Assembly (NCBI GenBank): GCA_041652555.1
Contig: JBAZHE010000005.1
Span: 7,547-64,515 of the forward strand
Direction of reading: 5' to 3'
DNA length: 56,969 nucleotides
Source: Patescibacteria group bacterium
GTDB taxonomy: Bacteria > Patescibacteriota > Patescibacteriia > Patescibacteriales > WJLG01
Shown: piece after piece, positions 963-47,965 of the stretch
Layout: the number at the start of each line of letters is the position of its first letter
How positions within the stretch are numbered: the first letter of the stretch is position 1
Made by a program: the position numbers and the translations under genes
The notes under the pieces: model-generated
Database searches by the model: none
What the model was told of the DNA's origin: nothing
What the model saw: only the letters and a program-made list of their open reading frames with translations

Positions 963-3068
963 ATGCCTCGCGATTACGCTTTAGATAAAGTAAGAAATAT
1001 TGGCATTTGTGCTCATATTGACGCCGGAAAAACCACTTTTACCGAGCGGGTTTTGTTTTACACCGGTAAGAAACATAAAATTGGCGAGGTGCACGAAGGC
1101 GCTGCGGAAATGGATTGGATGGAGCAGGAGAAAGAAAGAGGTATTACCATTACTTCTGCCGCTACAACTTGTTTTTGGAAAAATCATAAAATAAACTTAA
1201 TTGATACTCCTGGGCACGTAGATTTTACCGTTGAGGTAGAACGTTCTATGCGTGTTTTGGACGGTGCTGTGGCCGTTTTTGACGGTTCTCAGGGTGTTGA
1301 ACCTCAGTCTGAGACTGTCTGGCGCCAAGCTGATAAATATCATATTCCTCGTTTGTGTTTCGTGAATAAAATGGATAAATTAGGTGCTGATTTTTATATG
1401 AGTTTGGAATCGATTCAGAAACGTCTCAACCCGGTGGCTTTTGCCGTACAATTGCCGATCGGTGCGGATAGCACTTTCTCCGGTTTAATTGATTTAATAG
1501 AAAAGAAGGCTTATAAGTTTGAAGGTGCCAATGGTGAAAAAATAGTTGAAATTGAAATTCCGGCTGATATGGTCGATCAAGTTGAAAAATATCATGCAAC
1601 GATGGTTGAAAAAATTGCTGAATGTGATGATATTTTAATGGACAAATTTTTTAATGGTCAAGAAATAACTGTTGATGAATTGAAAATTACTTTGCGTAAA
1701 GGTGTTGTGGACAGCAAGATTTATCCGGTTTTTTGCGGTTCCGCTTTGCAAAATGTCGGCGTTCAGCTTGTTTTGGACGCCGTAGTTGCCTATCTTCCTT
1801 CTCCGCTTGATGTGGAGTTTGTTGTAGGAACTGATGTTGATGATAAGGAAAAGGAGATAAAAGTTATTCCTTCTGACGAAGAACCTTTTGCCGGGTTGGC
1901 TTTTAAGATTGCTACCGATCCTTTTGTCGGAAAACTTTGTTTTGTCCGTATTTATTCTGGAAAATTAGAAGCTGGTTCTTATGTTGAAAATTCTACTAAT
2001 GGAGAAAAAGAAAGAATCGGTCGTCTTGTTCGTATGCACGCCAATCATCGCGAAGATGTCAAAGAAGTTTATGCTGGTGATATTGTTGCCGTTGTTGGTT
2101 TGAAAGCGACTACTACCGGAAATACTTTATGCGACGAGCGTCGTCCTGTTCTCTTGGAGAGTATTACTTTCCCTGAGCCGGTTATTAAAATTGCTGTGGA
2201 ACCAAAGACTAAGGCTGATCAAGAAAAGATGGGCGTGGCCTTGTCTAAATTAGCCGAGGAAGATCCGACTTTCCGAGTAGAATCTGATGAAGAAACTAAT
2301 CAAACTCTAATCTCTGGTATGGGTGAATTGCATTTAGATATTATTGTTGATCGCATGCGTCGTGAATTTGGCGTTGATGCTAATATCGGTAATCCCCAAG
2401 TTTCTTATCGTGAAGCTATCAAAAAATCCGCCGAAGGCGAAGGTAAATATATTAAACAGTCTGGTGGTCGTGGTCAATACGGTCATTGCTATTTAACAGT
2501 TGAACCGGCAACAGTTGATTCGGAAACCGGAGCAATTAAACCGTTTGAATTTGTTAATGCCACTAAAGGCGGATCAATTCCACGAGAATACATTCCAGCT
2601 ATTGAAAAGGGTGTTAAGGAAGCTTTGACTAATGGTATTGTTGCCGGTTATCCGTTGATAAATATTAAGGTGTCTGTAACAGATGGTTCTTACCATGAAG
2701 TTGACTCTTCAGAAATCGCTTTTAAAATGGCAGCTATCATGGGTTTTAAAGAAGCCTGCCGTAAAGCCGAACCGATTCTACTTGAGCCTATAATGAAAGT
2801 TGAAGTTATCACCCCAGAAGAATATATGGGAAACGTTGTTGGAGATTTGAGTTCTCGCCGTGGTCAAATAGAAGAAATGACCCAGCGCGGTACAGCCAAG
2901 GTTGTCAATGCCAAGGTTCCGTTAGCTGAAATGTTCGGCTATGTAACGGACTTGCGCTCTATGTCTCAAGGACGTGCTTCTTCAACGATGGAATTTTTTG
3001 AATACCACGAAGTCCCGAGAAATGTTTTGGAAAAAATTCAGGAAAAAGAAGGAAAATCAGCTAAATAA
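963..3068 (+). CDS. fusA: translation elongation factor G
   Basis: 701 aa. GTPase motifs [21 protein letters not shown]. Full-length EF-G domains. Confidence 0.98.
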
Positions 3069-3125
3069 TTTTAAGGGAGTGTCATTTTGTTGACCAATTA
3101 TTATTTTTAGGTTAAAATTATTTCT

Positions 3126-3719
3126 ATGAAAAGACAACTTTTAAAAGCTTTAGAAATAGCGGCCATAACTGGAGACAAAGTTATTGTAGTTGATGAAAAA
3201 ACCGATCAAGGTTTGGTTGTAATGGGCTTGGGTGAGTATGAACAGTTTTTGTTTGGTAGAAGAAGTGATGATTATTCTTTGACAGAAAATGATTCTCTTG
3301 ATAATATTAATGATGTCGCTTTTGAAAATAATGACTGGGAAAATGATCGGGAAAGCGAGAAATCTTCTCTTGCTGAAGCCATGAAGGATGAGGATGATTT
3401 TGAAGAAGAAGATGATGAATTGCCAGACATTTTTAAAGATAATGAAAAATTTAAAGATTCTGATATTCCCTTTGAAGATTTTTCTCCATTGGACGAGATC
3501 GCAGTGGATAAATCGCCTGCTTTCATTGAAGCTACGGCGGACAAGGTTGACGAAGATGAAAACCTTTATTATTACGAGGAACCAACAGAAAAGGCTAAAG
3601 AGAATAAAGAAAAAGATAGCGGGTTTACTAGCATTCAGGATGAATTAAAGGAAAAAAGAAAATGGGAAATTCCGCCAACCATTAAAAAGGGCGCAGAAGA
3701 AGTGATTAATAAAAATTAA
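3126..3719 (+). CDS. hypothetical acidic protein (small N-terminal module plus long Asp/Glu-rich tail)
   Basis: 197-aa ORF between fusA and tuf, same strand. No recognisable catalytic motif. Low-complexity acidic C-terminal two thirds. Confidence 0.6.
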   Translation: MKRQLLKALEIAAITGDKVIVVDEKTDQGLVVMGLGEYEQFLFGRRSDDYSLTENDSLDNINDVAFENNDWENDRESEKSSLAEAMKDEDDFEEEDDELPDIFKDNEKFKDSDIPFEDFSPLDEIAVDKSPAFIEATADKVDEDENLYYYEEPTEKAKENKEKDSGFTSIQDELKEKRKWEIPPTIKKGAEEVINKN

Positions 3720-5007: not shown

Positions 5008-5126
5008 ACCGATATTTTTCCGGCTTGAATTATATTCGAGCCGGAGGCTGTATCCATTTATTCCGTTGAGATAGGCTACCTGAAATGGTGCCTTGGAAGG
5101 AGAGAAATCTCCCTCAACCTAACAAC

Positions 5127-5504
5127 ATGACTGAGGAGAAAATCAAAAAAGACGTAAAAGTCGCAGCTGTTAAAGTAAAAAAAGAAACAGAGGAAGTGAA
5201 GCAGAAAATCCGTATCAAGATTAAAGCTTTTGATCACAAAATCATTGACAAGTCTACCAAGACTATTATTGATACTGTGTTTAAAAGTGGTGCGCAGATT
5301 TTTGGCCCTATTCCTTTGCCAACAGAGAAAGTGCGTTATACTGTGAACCGGTCAACTTTTGTTAATAAAGATTCCCGCGATCAGTATGAAATGCGCGTCC
5401 ACAAAAGAATTATTGATATTGTCGACCCGAGCGCTAAAACTGTAGAGGATTTGTCTGGTTTGAATTTGCCGGCTGGCGTTGATGTGGAGATAAAAATGGT
5501 TTAG
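5127..5504 (+). CDS. rpsJ: 30S ribosomal protein S10 (with Lys-rich N-terminal extension)
   Basis: Core [18 protein letters not shown]...[12 protein letters not shown]. The ORF is open from 5085, but the ATG at 5127 is the likelier start. Confidence 0.9.
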
Positions 5505-5814
5505 GATGTGACGTTTTTCTTTCTTTTTTGTTTAAATTTGCTATTTTATAGTTAGAGCAACTCTTTGACTTTTGTTAAAGAAAGTGTTTTATTTATAAAT
5601 AGTAAGAGTATAAGAAGTTACTAAAGATACGCAGCAATAGCTAAAGTTATTATAAATTGCGCTAAATAGTAATTTTTTTAAAAGAAATTCAACTAAAGTT
5701 AGCCGAAAATTCAATATTGACTATTTTTTTATTTTAAGCTATGCTTAAATAGTCATTTTTAATGAATTGACCGCTTTTGTTGAAGGTCAATTTTTTGTTT
5801 AAAGTAAAGTGTTT

Positions 5815-6561
5815 ATGAAATTCATTATAGGTAAAAAAATTGAGATGACTCAGATTTGGCAGGGCGATAAGATTATCCCGGTTACCAAGGTGTTAGCCGG
5901 TCCATGTTCAGTTATTCAAGTTAAAAATAAAGAAAAAGACGGATATTGCTCCGTTCAGCTTGGTTTTGAAGAAAAGAAGGCAAAAAATATTGCTAAACCG
6001 CAACTTGGCCATTTTAAGAAGGTTGGGATTAATTTTAAGACGGTTAAAGAATTTCGTTTGGACAGGATTGGTCGTGAAGAAAAAACTGAGTTTTCTTTGG
6101 GGGATAAAATTGATGTTGGAACTTTTGTTATTGGAGATCAAATTGATATCGTTGGCGTTTCTAAAGGTAAGGGTTTTCAGGGTGTTGTTAAACGCCATCA
6201 TTTTGCTGGTGGTCGCAAAAGCCATGGCAACAAAGATCAGTTGCGTATGCCGGGGTCCGTGAGTTCCACTGGTGTTGGCCATGTTTTTCGCGGCACTAAA
6301 ATGGGTGGGCGAATGGGTGGTGACAGAGTTACTGTAAAAAATTCTGAAATAATTTCCATCGATGAAGTGAATAATTTTATATTTATTAAAGGTGCAGTCC
6401 CAGGTGCTAGAAATGGCCTAGTTTTAATTCAAGGTTTGGGAGAATTAAAAATTATAAAACCGTCAACCGCTAAGGTTCCGGAGGATGAACCAGAAATTAA
6501 AATTGAAAGCATTGAGACTGAGGAAATTAAAGCGGAAACGATAAAAGAAGAGGTTAAATAA
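5815..6561 (+). CDS. rplC: 50S ribosomal protein L3 (acidic C-terminal extension)
   Basis: FQGVVKRHHFAGGRKSHGN and MGGRMGGDRVT motifs. ATG at 5815 (GTG at 5809 also possible). Confidence 0.93.
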   Translation: MKFIIGKKIEMTQIWQGDKIIPVTKVLAGPCSVIQVKNKEKDGYCSVQLGFEEKKAKNIAKPQLGHFKKVGINFKTVKEFRLDRIGREEKTEFSLGDKIDVGTFVIGDQIDIVGVSKGKGFQGVVKRHHFAGGRKSHGNKDQLRMPGSVSSTGVGHVFRGTKMGGRMGGDRVTVKNSEIISIDEVNNFIFIKGAVPGARNGLVLIQGLGELKIIKPSTAKVPEDEPEIKIESIETEEIKAETIKEEVK

Positions 6562-6578
6562 TATTTTAATCAATTAGA

Positions 6579-7265
6579 ATGAAATTAAATATTTACAATC
6601 AGCAAGGAGAAACTAAATCAGAGATAGAAATTTCTGATAAGGTTTTTGGCGTTAAAGTCAATTCGGTTTTAATTAATGAGGCAGTGGTTGCGCAAATGGC
6701 TAATGAAAGGCAAGTTTTAGCTGACACTAAGGGTAGAAGCGAAGTTCGTGGTGGTGGTAGAAAGCCGTGGCGTCAAAAAGGCACTGGCCGCGCCAGAGCT
6801 GGTTCTAGTCGTTCTCCGATCTGGGTTGGTGGTGGTGTGACTTTTGGTCCAACCAAAGATCGTAATTTTTCTAAAAAAATAAATAAGCAAGCTAAGAAAA
6901 AAGCTTTATTGATGGTTTTATCCGATCGCGTTGCTAGTAATTCTTTGTTGATTTTAGATCAAGTTGTTTTAGAAGGTTTTAAAACCAAAGTTTTTAATGA
7001 AATTTTAAATAATTTGGAAGAAAAAGTTTTAAAAATAACAACTGTTGATGAAAAGAAGAAAAATAAAAAAGTTAGAAGTGGCAAGAGAAGTATTCTTTTT
7101 ATTAATGAGGCTAAAGACAAAAAAATAAATAATTCCGGTCGAAATTTATCTGGCGTAAAGATGCTGAATATTCAAAATATTAATATTGTTGATTTGTTAA
7201 AATATAAAACAGTTATCACGAGTGAGGTGGCTGTTAAAAAATTGGAAGAAATTTATAAAAAATAG
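6579..7265 (+). CDS. rplD: 50S ribosomal protein L4
   Basis: RGGGRKPWRQKGTGRARAGSSRSPIWVGGGVTFGP motif. S10 operon order. Confidence 0.95.
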   Translation: MKLNIYNQQGETKSEIEISDKVFGVKVNSVLINEAVVAQMANERQVLADTKGRSEVRGGGRKPWRQKGTGRARAGSSRSPIWVGGGVTFGPTKDRNFSKKINKQAKKKALLMVLSDRVASNSLLILDQVVLEGFKTKVFNEILNNLEEKVLKITTVDEKKKNKKVRSGKRSILFINEAKDKKINNSGRNLSGVKMLNIQNINIVDLLKYKTVITSEVAVKKLEEIYKK

Positions 7266-26523: not shown

Positions 26524-27168
26524 ATGAGCCAAAAAACACCAAGCTCCGGACAAGCGCTGGAACTAGCCGGTATCGCTGTTAAAGCGATAGCTAGTGGAAT
26601 TAAAAATGGAAATCCGGATTTTGATCGGGTTCAGGGAATAGTTGGTAATCCCGGAGCCATTTATGATTTCTTCAGCAATTTGTTCGCTGAAAAATCAGAG
26701 AAGCCGACCTCATCGATTTTGAAACTTCTCTCCGCCAGTGAAAACATGACCATCGAATCTCTCGACGGCAAGGAATTCATTCATGGAGACAGAAAAGTTT
26801 TCAAGTCGTATATTGACGACGATTTCAAAAACTGGAAACTGAATCAGGCGAGCGAAGCTACCAAGGAAACTGCCGTGCAGGTGCATGAGCTGGTTGAAGA
26901 CGCGACTTTCGCAAAAATGTTTACTTCGCTTTCCGGCGACTTAGACAAATTATGCCTTACGCAACATCAGATTAAGAGATTTTGCGAATATCCCGGCCAG
27001 CTTAGCCAGAGTGGCGCCACGTTCTTCCTGTTCAAGCTGAATGGAGAATATTTCGTGGCTGACGTGGACGTGTACGACGATGGTCTCTCTGTCTTCGTCC
27101 GCCGCTTCGAGATCGACCCTCTCTGGTGTGCCGAGTATGGTCACCGGCTTGTCGTCCCGCAACTTTAG
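26524..27168 (+). CDS. DGR variable (target) protein, 214 aa, VR at the C-terminus
   Basis: ATG at 26524 preceded by AGGA. The C-terminal 38 codons form the VR. Visibly more GC-rich than its neighbours. The ORF is open from the TTG at 26416, but that stretch looks like a promoter. Confidence 0.8.
   Translation: MSQKTPSSGQALELAGIAVKAIASGIKNGNPDFDRVQGIVGNPGAIYDFFSNLFAEKSEKPTSSILKLLSASENMTIESLDGKEFIHGDRKVFKSYIDDDFKNWKLNQASEATKETAVQVHELVEDATFAKMFTSLSGDLDKLCLTQHQIKRFCEYPGQLSQSGATFFLFKLNGEYFVADVDVYDDGLSVFVRRFEIDPLWCAEYGHRLVVPQL
27050..27165 (+). repeat. DGR variable region (VR)
   Basis: Ungapped match to 27546-27661 (offset 496). The 14 mismatches all lie where the TR has A. The stop codon TAG (27166-27168) directly follows the repeat. 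Confidence 0.9.
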
Positions 27169-27238
27169 TTTCCTAGATCACTTGAACTTGGAAACTTTGT
27201 CCCTTGGATTCTTTGAACTTAGGTTTTAACCTTCGTTC

Positions 27239-27267
27239 TTGAATTCAAGGGATTTTTTTTGTATAAT
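27239..27267 (+). promoter_or_regulatory. candidate promoter for the TR-containing RNA
   Basis: TTGAAT (27239-27244) - 17 nt - TATAAT (27262-27267). Lies about 280 nt upstream of the TR on the same strand. Confidence 0.5.
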
Positions 27268-27545
27268 AAAGATGCAGTTTTGATTTGTTCGCCGGCTAAG
27301 GCTGGTGAGCCAAGATTGTTTGAAGATATTTTTGAGAGTTTTGCCGGTTACGGCTGGCAAGAGAGGAAAATATTTTTAATTCAAATAAACAAGCTAAAGT
27401 TGGTATGGCGCGCTGGCGGACTTTAAGGAGATAAAATTTTCCCGATGTCCCGAATAATTTTCAGCCGTTTCTTTCGCACTCGGCGTCAGGGGCGGCGGTG
27501 GTAAAGGGGCTGGCAACCAGTCTCTTGAAGAAGGCGCGCTATGCA

Positions 27546-27661
27546 ATTTCGTGGCTAACGTGAACGTGAACGACGATGGTCTCAATGTCAACGTCAACCG
27601 CTTCGAGAACGACAATCTCTGGAATGCCGAGTATGGTCACCGGCTTGTCGTCCCGCAACTT
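27546..27661 (+). repeat. DGR template region (TR)
   Basis: Reads FVANVNVNDDGLNVNVNRFENDNLWNAEYGHRLVVPQL, with nine AAY codons. Non-coding copy of the VR. Confidence 0.9.
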
Positions 27662-28047
27662 GGCTGTTCCTCCTTCGCTTGTTGCGAGGGAGTTTTCTTT
27701 TCCAAACCTTTTTTCCAGCCGCCAAGTATGCGGCCGACTTCATTAAGTTTTTCCGATAATTCTGCGTATCGCTCATTGGAAAGGCATTTATTTTCCCAAG
27801 CCAATTGAAAGAAAAATTTAACGCCATCAAGTTTGACAATAGCTGAACCCAGCTCAAGATATTTTTTTTCTTTGGGAAGGTAAATGGCCGTAAAAATATT
27901 TTCTAACATCCCCAAAAAGTATTCTTCAATTTTTCCGCCCAGATTATAGCGATGAGCTTTGGGAAAATCAGTAAGAATTTTAAACCACAGCGCATAGGTT
28001 TCTTTGGCTTTTGTCATCACCGTCGGAATGCTATAATAGGTAGCCAT
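27637..28047 (-). CDS. avd: Avd-like accessory variability determinant (four-helix-bundle protein)
   Basis: 136 aa. The C-terminal NEVGRILGGWKKGL closely resembles the EVGRILGSW segment I recall from Bordetella phage bAvd. Helical heptad pattern. The 3' end overlaps the TR by 25 nt on the opposite strand. Confidence 0.8.
   Translation of the reverse strand: MATYYSIPTVMTKAKETYALWFKILTDFPKAHRYNLGGKIEEYFLGMLENIFTAIYLPKEKKYLELGSAIVKLDGVKFFFQLAWENKCLSNERYAELSEKLNEVGRILGGWKKGLEKKTPSQQAKEEQPSCGTTSR
27670..27701 (+). terminator. hairpin plus U-tract immediately downstream of the TR
   Basis: ctccttcgc-ttgtt-gcgagggag (9 bp, one G-U that pairs only in the + strand RNA), then TTTTCTTTT. Starts 9 nt after the TR end. 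Confidence 0.55.
28029..28037 (+). promoter_or_regulatory. possible extended -10 (TGcTATAAT) upstream of the RT gene
   Basis: TGCTATAAT lies 22 nt upstream of the RT ATG. The same motif occurs at 23147 and 23247. It lies inside the avd 5' coding region on the other strand. Confidence 0.35.
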
Positions 28048-28058
28048 AAATTTATAGG

Positions 28059-29063
28059 ATGAAAAAATTTATAAAAAAATACGAAGAAATAATCACAGTT
28101 AATAAATTACTTTCCGCCTGGGAAGGTTTTCTGGCTGGAAAAAAACAGCGGAGCGATGTGGCGGTTTTCCAGAGCCGCCTAATGGATAATATTTTGGCGC
28201 TTTATCATGATTTAAAGAATAAAACTTATCTGCATGAAGAATATAAGGCGTTCAATATTTCCGACCCCAAGCCGCGCAATATCCATAAGGCGACAGTCCG
28301 CGATCGCTTGTTGCATCATCTGCTTTATCAAGAAACATATGATTTTTTTGACCGGCAGTTTATTTATGATTCATATTCTTGCCGCCTTAACAAGGGCACG
28401 CATCGGGCGATTCGCCGTTTTGCTGATTTTACCAGGAGTGTTTCGCGGAACAATCGGAAAACAGTTTGGGTTTTGAAATGCGATATCAGAAAATTTTTTG
28501 CTAGCGTTGACCACCAAATTTTAAAAAATATTTTAGCTAAATATATCGTTGACAAAGATTTGCTCTGGTTGTTCGGACAAGTAATTGACAGTTTTAACAC
28601 CGAAGGAAAACAGGGGATTGGTCTGCCACTTGGCAATTTAACTTCGCAATTGTTGGTTAATATTTATATGAATGGATTTGACCAATTTGTGAAGCGCGAT
28701 TTGAAAATAAAATATTACGCGCGTTACGCCGATGATTTTATTTTTTTAGATAAAGACAGAAATAGTTTAGTCACCATTTTTTTGCAGATAGATAAATTTT
28801 TAAAAAACACGCTTAAATTATTTTTACATCCTGATAAATGTTTTATTAAAACTTTGACATCGGGTGTTGATTTTTTAGGCTGGGTTCAGTTTTGCGGTTA
28901 TAGAGTTTTAAGAACTTCCACTAAAAAACGGGTGTTTAAAAGAATAGAGGGTGATTCGGATTCGTCGCCAATCATTGCCACTTACCTCGGCTTGCTTAAA
29001 CATGGAAATGGCCATAAACTTGGCGAGCGAATTATTAAGTATGAAGTAAACAAAATATTATGA
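28059..29063 (+). CDS. DGR-type reverse transcriptase
   Basis: 334 aa. RT motifs DIRKFFASVDH, LPLGNLTSQLLVNIYMNGFD (the (I/L)GxxxSQ DGR signature) and YARYADDFIF (YxDD). No maturase or endonuclease domains. Confidence 0.92.
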   Translation: MKKFIKKYEEIITVNKLLSAWEGFLAGKKQRSDVAVFQSRLMDNILALYHDLKNKTYLHEEYKAFNISDPKPRNIHKATVRDRLLHHLLYQETYDFFDRQFIYDSYSCRLNKGTHRAIRRFADFTRSVSRNNRKTVWVLKCDIRKFFASVDHQILKNILAKYIVDKDLLWLFGQVIDSFNTEGKQGIGLPLGNLTSQLLVNIYMNGFDQFVKRDLKIKYYARYADDFIFLDKDRNSLVTIFLQIDKFLKNTLKLFLHPDKCFIKTLTSGVDFLGWVQFCGYRVLRTSTKKRVFKRIEGDSDSSPIIATYLGLLKHGNGHKLGERIIKYEVNKIL

Positions 29064-30847: not shown

Positions 30848-30920
<73 letters not shown>

Positions 30921-30962: not shown

Positions 30963-31045
30963 GGGTCGGTACCAAAGCGGTCAACTGGGGGAGACTGTAA
31001 ATCTCCTGGCTTATGCCTTCGAAGGTTCGAATCCTTCCCGGCCCA
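30963..31045 (+). tRNA. tRNA-Tyr (anticodon GTA), long variable arm
   Basis: Acceptor gggtcgg/ccggccc, anticodon arm ggaga-ctGTAaa-tctcc, variable arm tggcttatgccttc, T arm gaagg-ttcgaat-ccttc. Confidence 0.88.
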
Positions 31046-36336: not shown

Positions 36337-36420
<84 letters not shown>

Positions 36421-47893: not shown

Positions 47894-47965
47894 TAGTCCC
47901 TAGGGGAATCGAACCCCTATTGCCAGGATGAGAACCTGGCGTCCTAACCGTTAGACGAAGGGACC
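47894..47965 (-). tRNA. tRNA-Glu (anticodon CTC)
   Basis: The reverse complement ggtcccttcgtctaacggttaggacgccaggttCTCatcctggcaataggggttcgattcccctagggacta parallels the E. coli tRNA-Glu architecture. G1-U72 wobble. Confidence 0.8.

Follow-up and report, generated by a model that had tools for sequence, protein, structure and literature searches.

The DNA analysed here is a stretch of 56,969 nucleotides from a Patescibacteria group bacterium (NCBI GenBank assembly GCA_041652555.1, contig JBAZHE010000005.1, positions 7,547 to 64,515 of the forward strand), which we call the window and number from its first letter. It contains a complete diversity-generating retroelement (DGR), comprising a target gene that carries a variable repeat (VR), a template repeat (TR), the gene avd and a gene for a reverse transcriptase (RT). 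Our subject is the RNA predicted to carry the TR, and in particular a conserved structured leader lying between the VR and the TR. The genes and repeats are as follows.

26524 to 27168, + strand: DGR target gene, an open reading frame (ORF) of 214 amino acids with the VR at its C-terminus
27050 to 27165, + strand: VR, a 116-nt repeat 88% identical to the TR
27546 to 27661, + strand: TR, found as a repeat pair with the VR
27637 to 28047, - strand: avd, divergent from the RT gene, identified as an ORF and by profile matches
28059 to 29063, + strand: DGR RT, 334 amino acids, with an RVT_1 match at 6.2e-21

The locus is marked as a DGR by its adenine-specific TR/VR pair, its RT, the position of the VR at the 3' end of the target gene and the presence of Avd. 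All 14 mismatches of the 116-nt pair fall at TR adenines, a pattern of differences that fits past mutagenic retrohoming, and the VR ends 3 nt short of the stop codon of the target ORF. Reverse transcriptases of the DGR clade have as their hallmarks an RVT_1 domain, an [I/L]GxxxSQ motif and YxDD; the window RT translates with LGNLTSQ and YADD. The avd product scores 53.6 bits against Pfam bAvd, where the cut-off is 40, and 71.1 bits against NCBIfam DivGenRetAVD, under the cut-off of 80; its Avd domain ends near residue 114 of 136. The sole Pfam match of the target protein is a weak one, to DUF7638.

The original prediction described the layout, with avd inverted between TR and RT, as non-canonical. 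Comparison of gene orientation across related loci leads to a different view. Homologues of the RT number in the thousands, from Patescibacteria, and 80 loci with RTs of 56-70% identity were fetched from GTDB species representatives, where more than 500 relatives are reported (individual loci are given with the prefix L). An inverted avd (or, in 61, the TR/VR pair) flanks the RT in 78 of the 80, the upstream DNA of the other two, L008 and L021, being too truncated to show either; wherever upstream DNA is retained, avd is reversed and directly upstream of the RT. The TR of the relatives ends 400-420 nt before the RT start, and the gap between VR and TR is typically about 300-410 nt (full range 265-694). 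This is architecture B3, written "TR-(avd)-RT" with the parentheses denoting the reverse strand, which accounts for 90% of the DGRs from the candidate phyla radiation (CPR) in the survey that defined it (Wu et al., 2018, NAR 46:11, PMC5758913). The window and all relatives with upstream DNA have the order and orientation of TR, reversed avd and RT of that cassette, and the hosts are CPR/Patescibacteria in both cases, with the target upstream and the VR at its 3' end; in gene order there is no difference at all. The DGR therefore has the standard B3 layout of the CPR/Patescibacteria clade, the norm for CPR and not a departure from it. Wu et al. (2018, PMC5758913) describe no TR promoter, post-TR terminator or structured leader between VR and TR, and it is with these that the following sections deal.

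The TR has a predicted transcription unit of its own

Four features downstream of the VR define the predicted TR RNA.

27199 to 27260, + strand: terminator of the target gene, a long hairpin (27199-27252) followed by eight T, from a single-sequence fold
27262 to 27267, + strand: -10 box TATAAT of the predicted TR-RNA promoter, from a promoter scan and conservation
27274 to 27545, + strand: structured 5' leader of the TR RNA, from RNAalifold, pair counts, a covariance model and a fold z-score
27670 to 27701, + strand: post-TR hairpin (27670-27692) and U-tract (27693-27701), the predicted, intrinsic-terminator-like 3' end of the TR RNA

A promoter TTGAAT-17-TATAAT at 27239-27267 had been proposed for the TR strand, and in our scan it has 10 of 12 matches. 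Such a match means little by itself, because promoter-like sites are common in AT-rich DNA (12 in the window against 7.0 +/- 2.5 in shuffled sequence). Terminator-like sites are likewise close to their number in shuffles (4 against 3.2), and the weight therefore rests on conservation of these features in the relatives. When the VR-TR gaps are aligned, TAnnnT occupies one column in 53 of 60 loci, compared with 1.8% of random positions, the commonest forms being TATACT (20 loci), TATAAT (11) and TAAAAT (7). The box lies 222-258 nt ahead of the TR in most loci and 278 nt ahead in the window, the greater distance being due to two insertions described below. It is directly preceded by TGn, as in an extended -10 element, in 28 of 60 loci, and a T-run stands just upstream of it in 53 of 60. 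By sequence the promoter thus resembles the extended -10 class, with a T-run ahead of it. The proposed -10 box stands on this comparison; the -35 element does not, and was dropped as a conserved feature. In the window the TTGAAT, at 27239-27244, forms the 3' arm of the hairpin of the target gene's terminator, and a hairpin with a T-run is found between the VR and the -10 box in 35 of 60 relatives.

Two hairpins in fact follow the VR, at 27167-27196 and 27199-27252, and the interval 27167-27252 also holds a run of CTTNG/CTTTG-like words. In the phage DGR BPP-1 a hairpin just after the VR boosts homing, and by analogy the hairpin at 27167-27196 is a candidate for such a role.

At the other end of the TR, the original prediction of a hairpin with a U-tract confined to the + strand was borne out. 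The window hairpin has nine pairs, six of them G-C and one G.U, followed by TTTTCTTTT up to 27701. Because hairpins with variable loops are left out of register by the MAFFT alignment, each sequence was folded separately and compared with controls. A stem-loop within 2 nt of a TTTTnTT run occurs 0-16 nt after the TR in 56 of 62 loci (in one further locus at 47 nt), and five of the remaining six have an obvious variant of hairpin and U-tract; the opposite strand gives 0 of 62, and random windows of the same loci 5.9% (n=1184). The sequence GUUUUnUUUU directly after the stem is conserved in 56 of 62 loci. The letters of the stem differ between relatives while pairing is kept (CTCCTCC/GGAGGAG, CCGCGC/GCGCGG, CTCTCC/GGAGAG), which is the covariation that had been proposed as a check. 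Across loci the pairs include 43 G.U against a single A.C mismatch, from which it follows that the hairpin works as plus-strand RNA. A G+C-rich stem-loop followed by a U-tract on the transcribed strand has the form of a Rho-independent terminator. A bidirectional terminator that also serves avd was considered and rejected, as 0 of 62 loci qualify on the - strand.

With a start at 27274 and an end at 27701, the predicted TR RNA is about 428 nt long and antisense to the 3' end of avd, as originally proposed. It folds at -169.5 kcal/mol with z = -5.6, compared with -108.4 kcal/mol and z = -0.65 for its complement on the - strand. Relatives lacking promoter and hairpin would have spoken against a discrete RNA of about 430 nt; the frequencies of the -10 box and of the + strand hairpin in those loci instead make a transcription unit for the TR itself well supported by comparison. 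The positions given in the original prediction were all correct on re-checking.

A conserved and covarying 5' leader precedes the TR

The region between the predicted start and the TR folds into the following elements.

27288-27309, + strand: P1, leader helix
27326-27333/27367-27374, + strand: P2, leader helix, enclosing P3
27339-27362, + strand: P3, leader helix
27403-27414/27533-27544, + strand: P4, long-range helix of 12 bp, enclosing P5 and P6
27418-27421/27447-27450, + strand: P5, leader helix of 4 bp
27464-27468/27492-27496, + strand: P6, leader helix
27384 to 27547, + strand: leader domain B (primer strand, P4, P5, AAUAAU single strand, P6), from covariance model R1

Two similar stem-loops with GCCGGYTAMGGCTGG had been pointed out in this region. 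They are real, conserved and covarying, and correspond to the tops of P1 and P3, but the leader is far more than two hairpins, a covarying structure of about 230 nt having been overlooked. The RNAalifold consensus of 52 loci has 48 pairs, 41 of them with compensatory changes. Within the paired columns 89.7% of cells are paired, compared with 66.5% in column shuffles and 42-48% when the partners are slid, and the covariation score is 0.70 against 0.25 and 0.13-0.19, respectively. P4 is paired in 98% of cells, with 10 of its 12 pairs changed on both sides, and an A-rich single strand (CGAAUAAUUUUCAG) lies between P5 and P6. The minimum free energy fold of the window sequence by itself contains all the consensus helices that were compared (P1, P4, P5, P6 and the terminator), together with the primer helix described below.

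R1, a covariance model of the domain from primer strand through P4 to P6, was built from 51 loci with the window left out. It finds the window domain at 41.5 bits (E = 1.6e-6), the sole significant match in 57 kb, and in every non-seed locus with upstream DNA it finds one + strand copy that ends at the TR start; it has no match in phage BPP-1. In locus L017 there are two weak R1 matches (2985-3101 and 3287-3397, about 37 bits each) in a VR-TR gap of 694 nt, which suggests that the domain is duplicated or degenerate there. A search of the window against Rfam returned only tRNAs at the gathering threshold, and only weak chance matches at E <= 10. Judged by its sequence and covariation, the leader is a conserved RNA family of about 230-280 nt that is new to Rfam.

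The apices of P1 and P3 (27293-27304 and 27344-27355) share a conserved motif, CGG-YY-A-M-GGCU (CGGYYAMGGCU), with near-invariant G.U pairs (47 of 52 and 50 of 52 loci) and a tetraloop of the UAAG/UACG type. A single protein, possibly Avd, might bind both copies. Relative to most other loci the window leader has two insertions, an enlarged P5 loop at 27422-27446 (UUUAAGGAGAUAAAAUUUUCCCGAU) and an extra hairpin at 27503-27530 (GGGGCUGGCAACCAGUCUCU) between P6 and the 3' strand of P4, and it is on account of these that it measures about 270 nt and not about 225 nt.

A leader strand pairs with the TR end and, more closely, with the VR boundary

Two further segments bear on how the RNA might be used.

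27388 to 27402, + strand: putative primer or guide strand, pairing with the TR 3' end and linker at 27656-27669
27160 to 27171, + strand: VR 3' boundary CAACTTTAGTTT, which includes the TAG stop and can pair with the putative primer strand of the leader; equivalent to the initiation of mutagenic homing (IMH) site of BPP-1

The conserved linker TCTTCATTT that follows the TR is the partner of AAATGAAGA in the leader. The helix between 27388-27402 and 27656-27669 is 75.9% paired across loci, with 9 of its 15 pairs changed on both sides. An invariant UUGG at 27400-27403 closes the putative primer strand. P4 continues the helix without a break, and its own 3' strand ends 1-2 nt before the TR. We had also considered the U-tract as the primer strand, pairing with GAAAC/GCAAC at the TR end; this was rejected, being weak and of low complexity, and the leader partner is better and covaries.

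The same strand is complementary to the VR boundary. In the window, leader 27391-27402 forms 12 in-register pairs with the VR boundary, one of them a wobble, compared with 6 uninterrupted pairs from the junction with the TR. Counting in register from the G before P4, the VR + strand is paired with the leader at positions 1-6 in 100, 100, 100, 94, 86 and 67% of loci, pairing at positions 1-3 being partly fixed by the choice of register anchor, and pairing decays thereafter; the TR pairs with the leader at positions 2, 3, 5 and 7-14. At position 4 the leader base is complementary to the VR in 46 of 49 loci (C:G in 27, G:C in 17, A:T in 2) and to the TR in only 27 of 49. At position 1 the VR has C in 49 of 49 loci, a count partly constrained by the anchor, and the TR has A in 22 of 49. 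From these counts the primer strand would distinguish VR from TR. In the clearer cases among the loci, the position corresponding to TR 27656 and VR 27160 lies in a codon that is CGA in the TR and CGC in the VR; since both encode arginine, the VR base looks fixed at the level of nucleic acid and not randomised as are the other TR adenines.

avd, its junction with the RT gene and the surroundings

The avd stop codon TGA (TCA on the + strand) lies at 27637-27639, and the resulting overlap of 25 nt between ORF and TR, to which the original prediction drew attention, is real. As a meaningful feature it did not hold up and we rejected it: among 62 loci the stop ranges in position from 56 nt beyond the TR to 238 nt within it, and on this evidence the overlap simply reflects where the first stop codon happens to occur. 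A conserved linker between TR and hairpin, TTCATTT, supplies that stop (as TCA) in many loci. The last 20 or so codons of the window avd are antisense to the terminator (hairpin and T-tract), the linker and 25 nt of the TR. Conserved among the loci is the antisense relation of the final 10-15 codons to hairpin and U-tract, by which two transcription units run towards each other and share their 3' ends.

The start codons of avd and the RT are separated by 11 nt, as first reported. A possible RT promoter had also been noted within the 5' end of avd:

28029 to 28037, + strand: TGCTATAAT, inside the avd 5' end, a possible RT promoter

The sequence is present in the window but was not seen at the corresponding position in relatives, and it was therefore rejected as a conserved RT promoter. 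The short junction between avd and RT carries a simple-sequence tract in 62 of 75 related loci (among them L006, L007, L010-L026 and L028-L043), located 0-47 nt upstream of the RT start, for example at L007:3975-3990. They are poly-G runs of 7-11, with lengths 9, 10 and 11 in 16, 17 and 12 loci, respectively, (GA) repeats of 5-15 units and a single case of (GT) with 13 units. Seen from the avd strand they are poly-C or (TC)n tracts, located at the Avd N-terminus or ahead of it. The tract is absent from 28000-28058 of the window and from its nearest relatives, L001-L005 and L009. The spread of tract lengths suggests a phase-variation switch, driven by strand slippage, that would act on avd, the RT or both.

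Two loci have a single TR with two VRs, both differing from it in an adenine-specific manner, and thus two targets: L009 (VRs at 3042-3155 and 5706-5819) and L043 (1624-1724 and 632-731). The contig of L039 carries a second DGR of a different type (5009-7025), with an RT 31% identical to that of the window, a TR (5791-5933) directly upstream of the RT with no avd between, and a VR at 5009-5151; R1 does not match it. The ORFs flanking the window DGR, which by eye from their translations we take to be ScpA/ScpB-like, triose-phosphate-isomerase-like and DnaE-like, look like housekeeping genes, and for this reason the DGR looks chromosomal and not phage-borne. Rfam places four tRNA genes in the window, at 30848-30920, 30963-31045, 36337-36420 and 47894-47965.

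Discussion

The explanation that we consider probable overall is that this B3 DGR makes its TR RNA as a separate transcript of about 430 nt, in which the 5' leader is a relocated form of the spacer found in BPP-1. According to this model, a non-coding RNA would start about 7 nt after the -10 box at 27262-27267, directly behind the terminator of the target gene, and end at the hairpin and U-tract at 27670-27701, keeping transcription out of the convergent avd. By analogy the 270-nt leader appears to take over the job of the 140-nt spacer (Sp) that in BPP-1 lies downstream of the TR. Leader 27388-27402, ending in UUG, and 27656-27669 would form the template:primer duplex, stacked directly on P4, and P4, with its 3' strand ending just short of the TR, would act as a stop for cDNA synthesis analogous to the cPRT stop of BPP-1. 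RT and Avd, made from their own divergent genes, would bind this RNA in trans. Priming at or next to the invariant UUGG, copying of the TR with adenine mutagenesis and a stop at P4 would follow. Over its final 5-6 nt (12 in the window) the primer strand matches the VR-specific 3' boundary more fully than it does the TR end, and because of this the RNA-cDNA product would find its in-register annealing site at the VR instead of the TR.

The comparison on which this model leans is with the ribonucleoprotein of BPP-1. There, primer strand Sp47-56 pairs with TR117-129; two nucleotides on, Sp59-70 pairs with a segment just upstream of the TR to give the 11-bp cPRT stop; and there follow a small stem-loop, unpaired adenosines, a single-stranded "thumb ring" and an RT-binding stem-loop (Handa et al., cryo-EM preprint, bioRxiv 10.1101/2023.10.23.563531). 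The window RNA has a putative primer strand paired to the TR 3' end, then a duplex of about 12 bp that abuts the TR 5' boundary, then a small stem-loop (P5), an A-rich single strand and a further stem-loop (P6) in the same order, with a G directly 5' of the paired TR segment. P1-P3, immediately 5' of the primer strand, occupy the place of the Avd-binding stem-loop of BPP-1. In both systems this strand matches the IMH at the VR end better than it does the IMH* at the TR end, Sp47-56 of BPP-1 making 10 in-register pairs with the former and 7 with the latter, a relation that has been proposed as the basis of homing directionality (Naorem et al., 2017, PMC5703328). There are also differences. Unlike BPP-1, where the module is 3' of the TR, that of the window lies entirely 5' of it, though collinear with Sp, and its stop duplex is contained within the leader instead of being formed between the upstream and downstream flanks. 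The window RNA is predicted to finish at a terminator some 40 nt past the TR, the inverted avd stands in the place of Sp, and there is an extra 5' domain (P1, P2/P3).

Several observations weigh against this model. The start and stop of the transcript, and whether there is read-through, are all inferred from sequence, and the -35 hexamer is not conserved, its mean match of 2.67/6 being close to the 2.46 of controls. The post-TR hairpin may by analogy be more than, or other than, a terminator, since Handa et al. assign an Avd-binding role to stem-loops that closely follow the TR, those of CPR included. Pairing of the TR with the leader is poor at positions 1, 4 and 6 (55, 55 and 27% of loci), beside the proposed priming site, whereas BPP-1 needs the four pairs nearest the active site. 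Complementarity of leader and VR past position 6 is confined to some loci, with p about 0.1 within the largest class, and was rejected as a general rule; it should also be noted that the permutation p-values take no account of kinship among loci. Finally, the Rfam family of the phage spacer, RF03022 (Phage_DGR, or RT-10 motif), has no match in 27100-28100 even at E <= 10, although it finds the BPP-1 spacer at 104.7 bits as a positive control. With no detectable homology, the equivalence of leader and Sp rests on topology and element order.

Other readings of the same features have to be set beside this one. Were the post-TR hairpin an Avd-binding stem-loop as in BPP-1, the TR could lie on one read-through transcript of TR, antisense avd and RT, the alternative that the original prediction itself had raised. 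Handa et al. predicted such stem-loops, typically of 9 bp, after the TR in 207 of 278 DGRs including those of CPR, which agrees with the 9-bp stem of the window, as does the fact that no conserved RT promoter was found. Read-through is nevertheless unlikely, given the conserved GUUUUnUUUU right after the stem in 56 of 62 loci, the presence upstream of analogues of primer strand and stop duplex, which leaves nothing to be required downstream, and the consequence that the RNA would be antisense to the entire avd. Conversely, the hairpin might do no more than insulate, as a terminator, and the leader might be a 5' region that is passive or regulatory, promoter and terminator simply averting collision with the convergent avd, with the priming elements located elsewhere or priming achieved differently. 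The textbook-like and strand-specific hairpin and U-tract, the lack of detectable similarity to RF03022 and the mismatches beside the proposed priming site all favour such a view, but some 230 nt of covarying structure maintained across 56-70% RT identity is far more than it needs. It also leaves aside that a leader strand covaries with two segments hundreds of nucleotides distant, the TR 3' linker and the VR boundary, and that P4 abuts the TR exactly as does the BPP-1 stop duplex, and we think it improbable.

A leader between promoter and functional RNA part, with a repeated apical motif in P1 and P3 that is a possible protein site, might alternatively be a cis-regulatory RNA (a riboswitch, an attenuator or a protein-binding element) that sets the level of the TR RNA outside the reverse-transcription machinery. 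No alternative terminator/anti-terminator fold is present inside the leader, no Rfam riboswitch matches it, and it would remain unexplained why the leader forms a long-range helix with the TR 3' end and covaries with the VR boundary; we give this reading very little credence. Nor do we set much store by the idea that leader:VR complementarity reflects an intramolecular helix in a long co-transcript from the target gene instead of recognition of a DNA target. The VR end and the leader are on the same strand and 230 nt apart, and only 35 of 60 loci pass the terminator test between VR and -10 box, as such a helix would have it. However, the -10 box and the T-run upstream of it are conserved, the TR 3' end is a second partner of that leader strand, and BPP-1 has the same relation of primer and IMH with no such helix invoked, all of which makes a co-transcript helix highly improbable. 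None of these alternatives accounts for the full pattern.

Parts of the model of a separate TR RNA with a relocated spacer are already published, namely the gene order, the idea of primer and IMH and the list of RNA elements in BPP-1. In the literature that we searched, which did not cover Paul et al. (2017, Nat Microbiol), and in Rfam we found no description of a conserved 5' leader, an Sp-like topology or a TR-RNA terminator in B3 DGRs. The analysis of Handa et al. spanned 40 nt upstream and 100 nt downstream of each TR, and with only 40 nt upstream it would have missed the leader. A discrete TR RNA does have a precedent in Trichodesmium erythraeum, where an abundant non-coding RNA of 265 nt with its own start, separate from the RT, was mapped experimentally; it lies downstream of the RT in another DGR lineage, and no structured 5' module is reported for it (Pfreundt et al., 2014, PMC4143802). 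The msr-msd of retrons is likewise a structured non-coding RNA that holds a template and an internal priming nucleotide for a dedicated RT. Unlike the window DGR, retrons have no VR/TR pair, Avd or adenine mutagenesis, their priming G is in msr, flanked by inverted repeats, and they are defence systems and not protein diversifiers.

DGRs are most abundant in CPR and DPANN organisms, while to our knowledge all mechanistic work on them has been done on one phage element with a different gene order. We suggest tentatively, and as a proposition that is somewhat more doubtful than the model itself, that the DGR RNA of CPR has been reorganised into a 5' module of primer strand, stop duplex and protein-binding stem-loops, followed by template and terminator, giving a self-contained and compact diversifier in which 5-12 nt of the leader would guide the choice of target. 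If a 5' leader for priming and stopping, together with a terminator, is indeed what these loci encode, this would explain how avd came to be inverted into the place of the spacer, and the DGR RNA scaffold would be permutable with its topology kept. The three types of covarying pair, in about 50 genomes, would then give independent comparative support to an RNA primer that picks the VR end and sets the direction of homing, and the leader would be a new RNA family, absent from Rfam, that could be used to annotate DGRs. The whole would amount to a very compact diversifier, an RT of 334 amino acids, an Avd of 136 and an RNA of about 430 nt acting in trans, of which the target boundary would be reprogrammable by a joint change of leader and TR.

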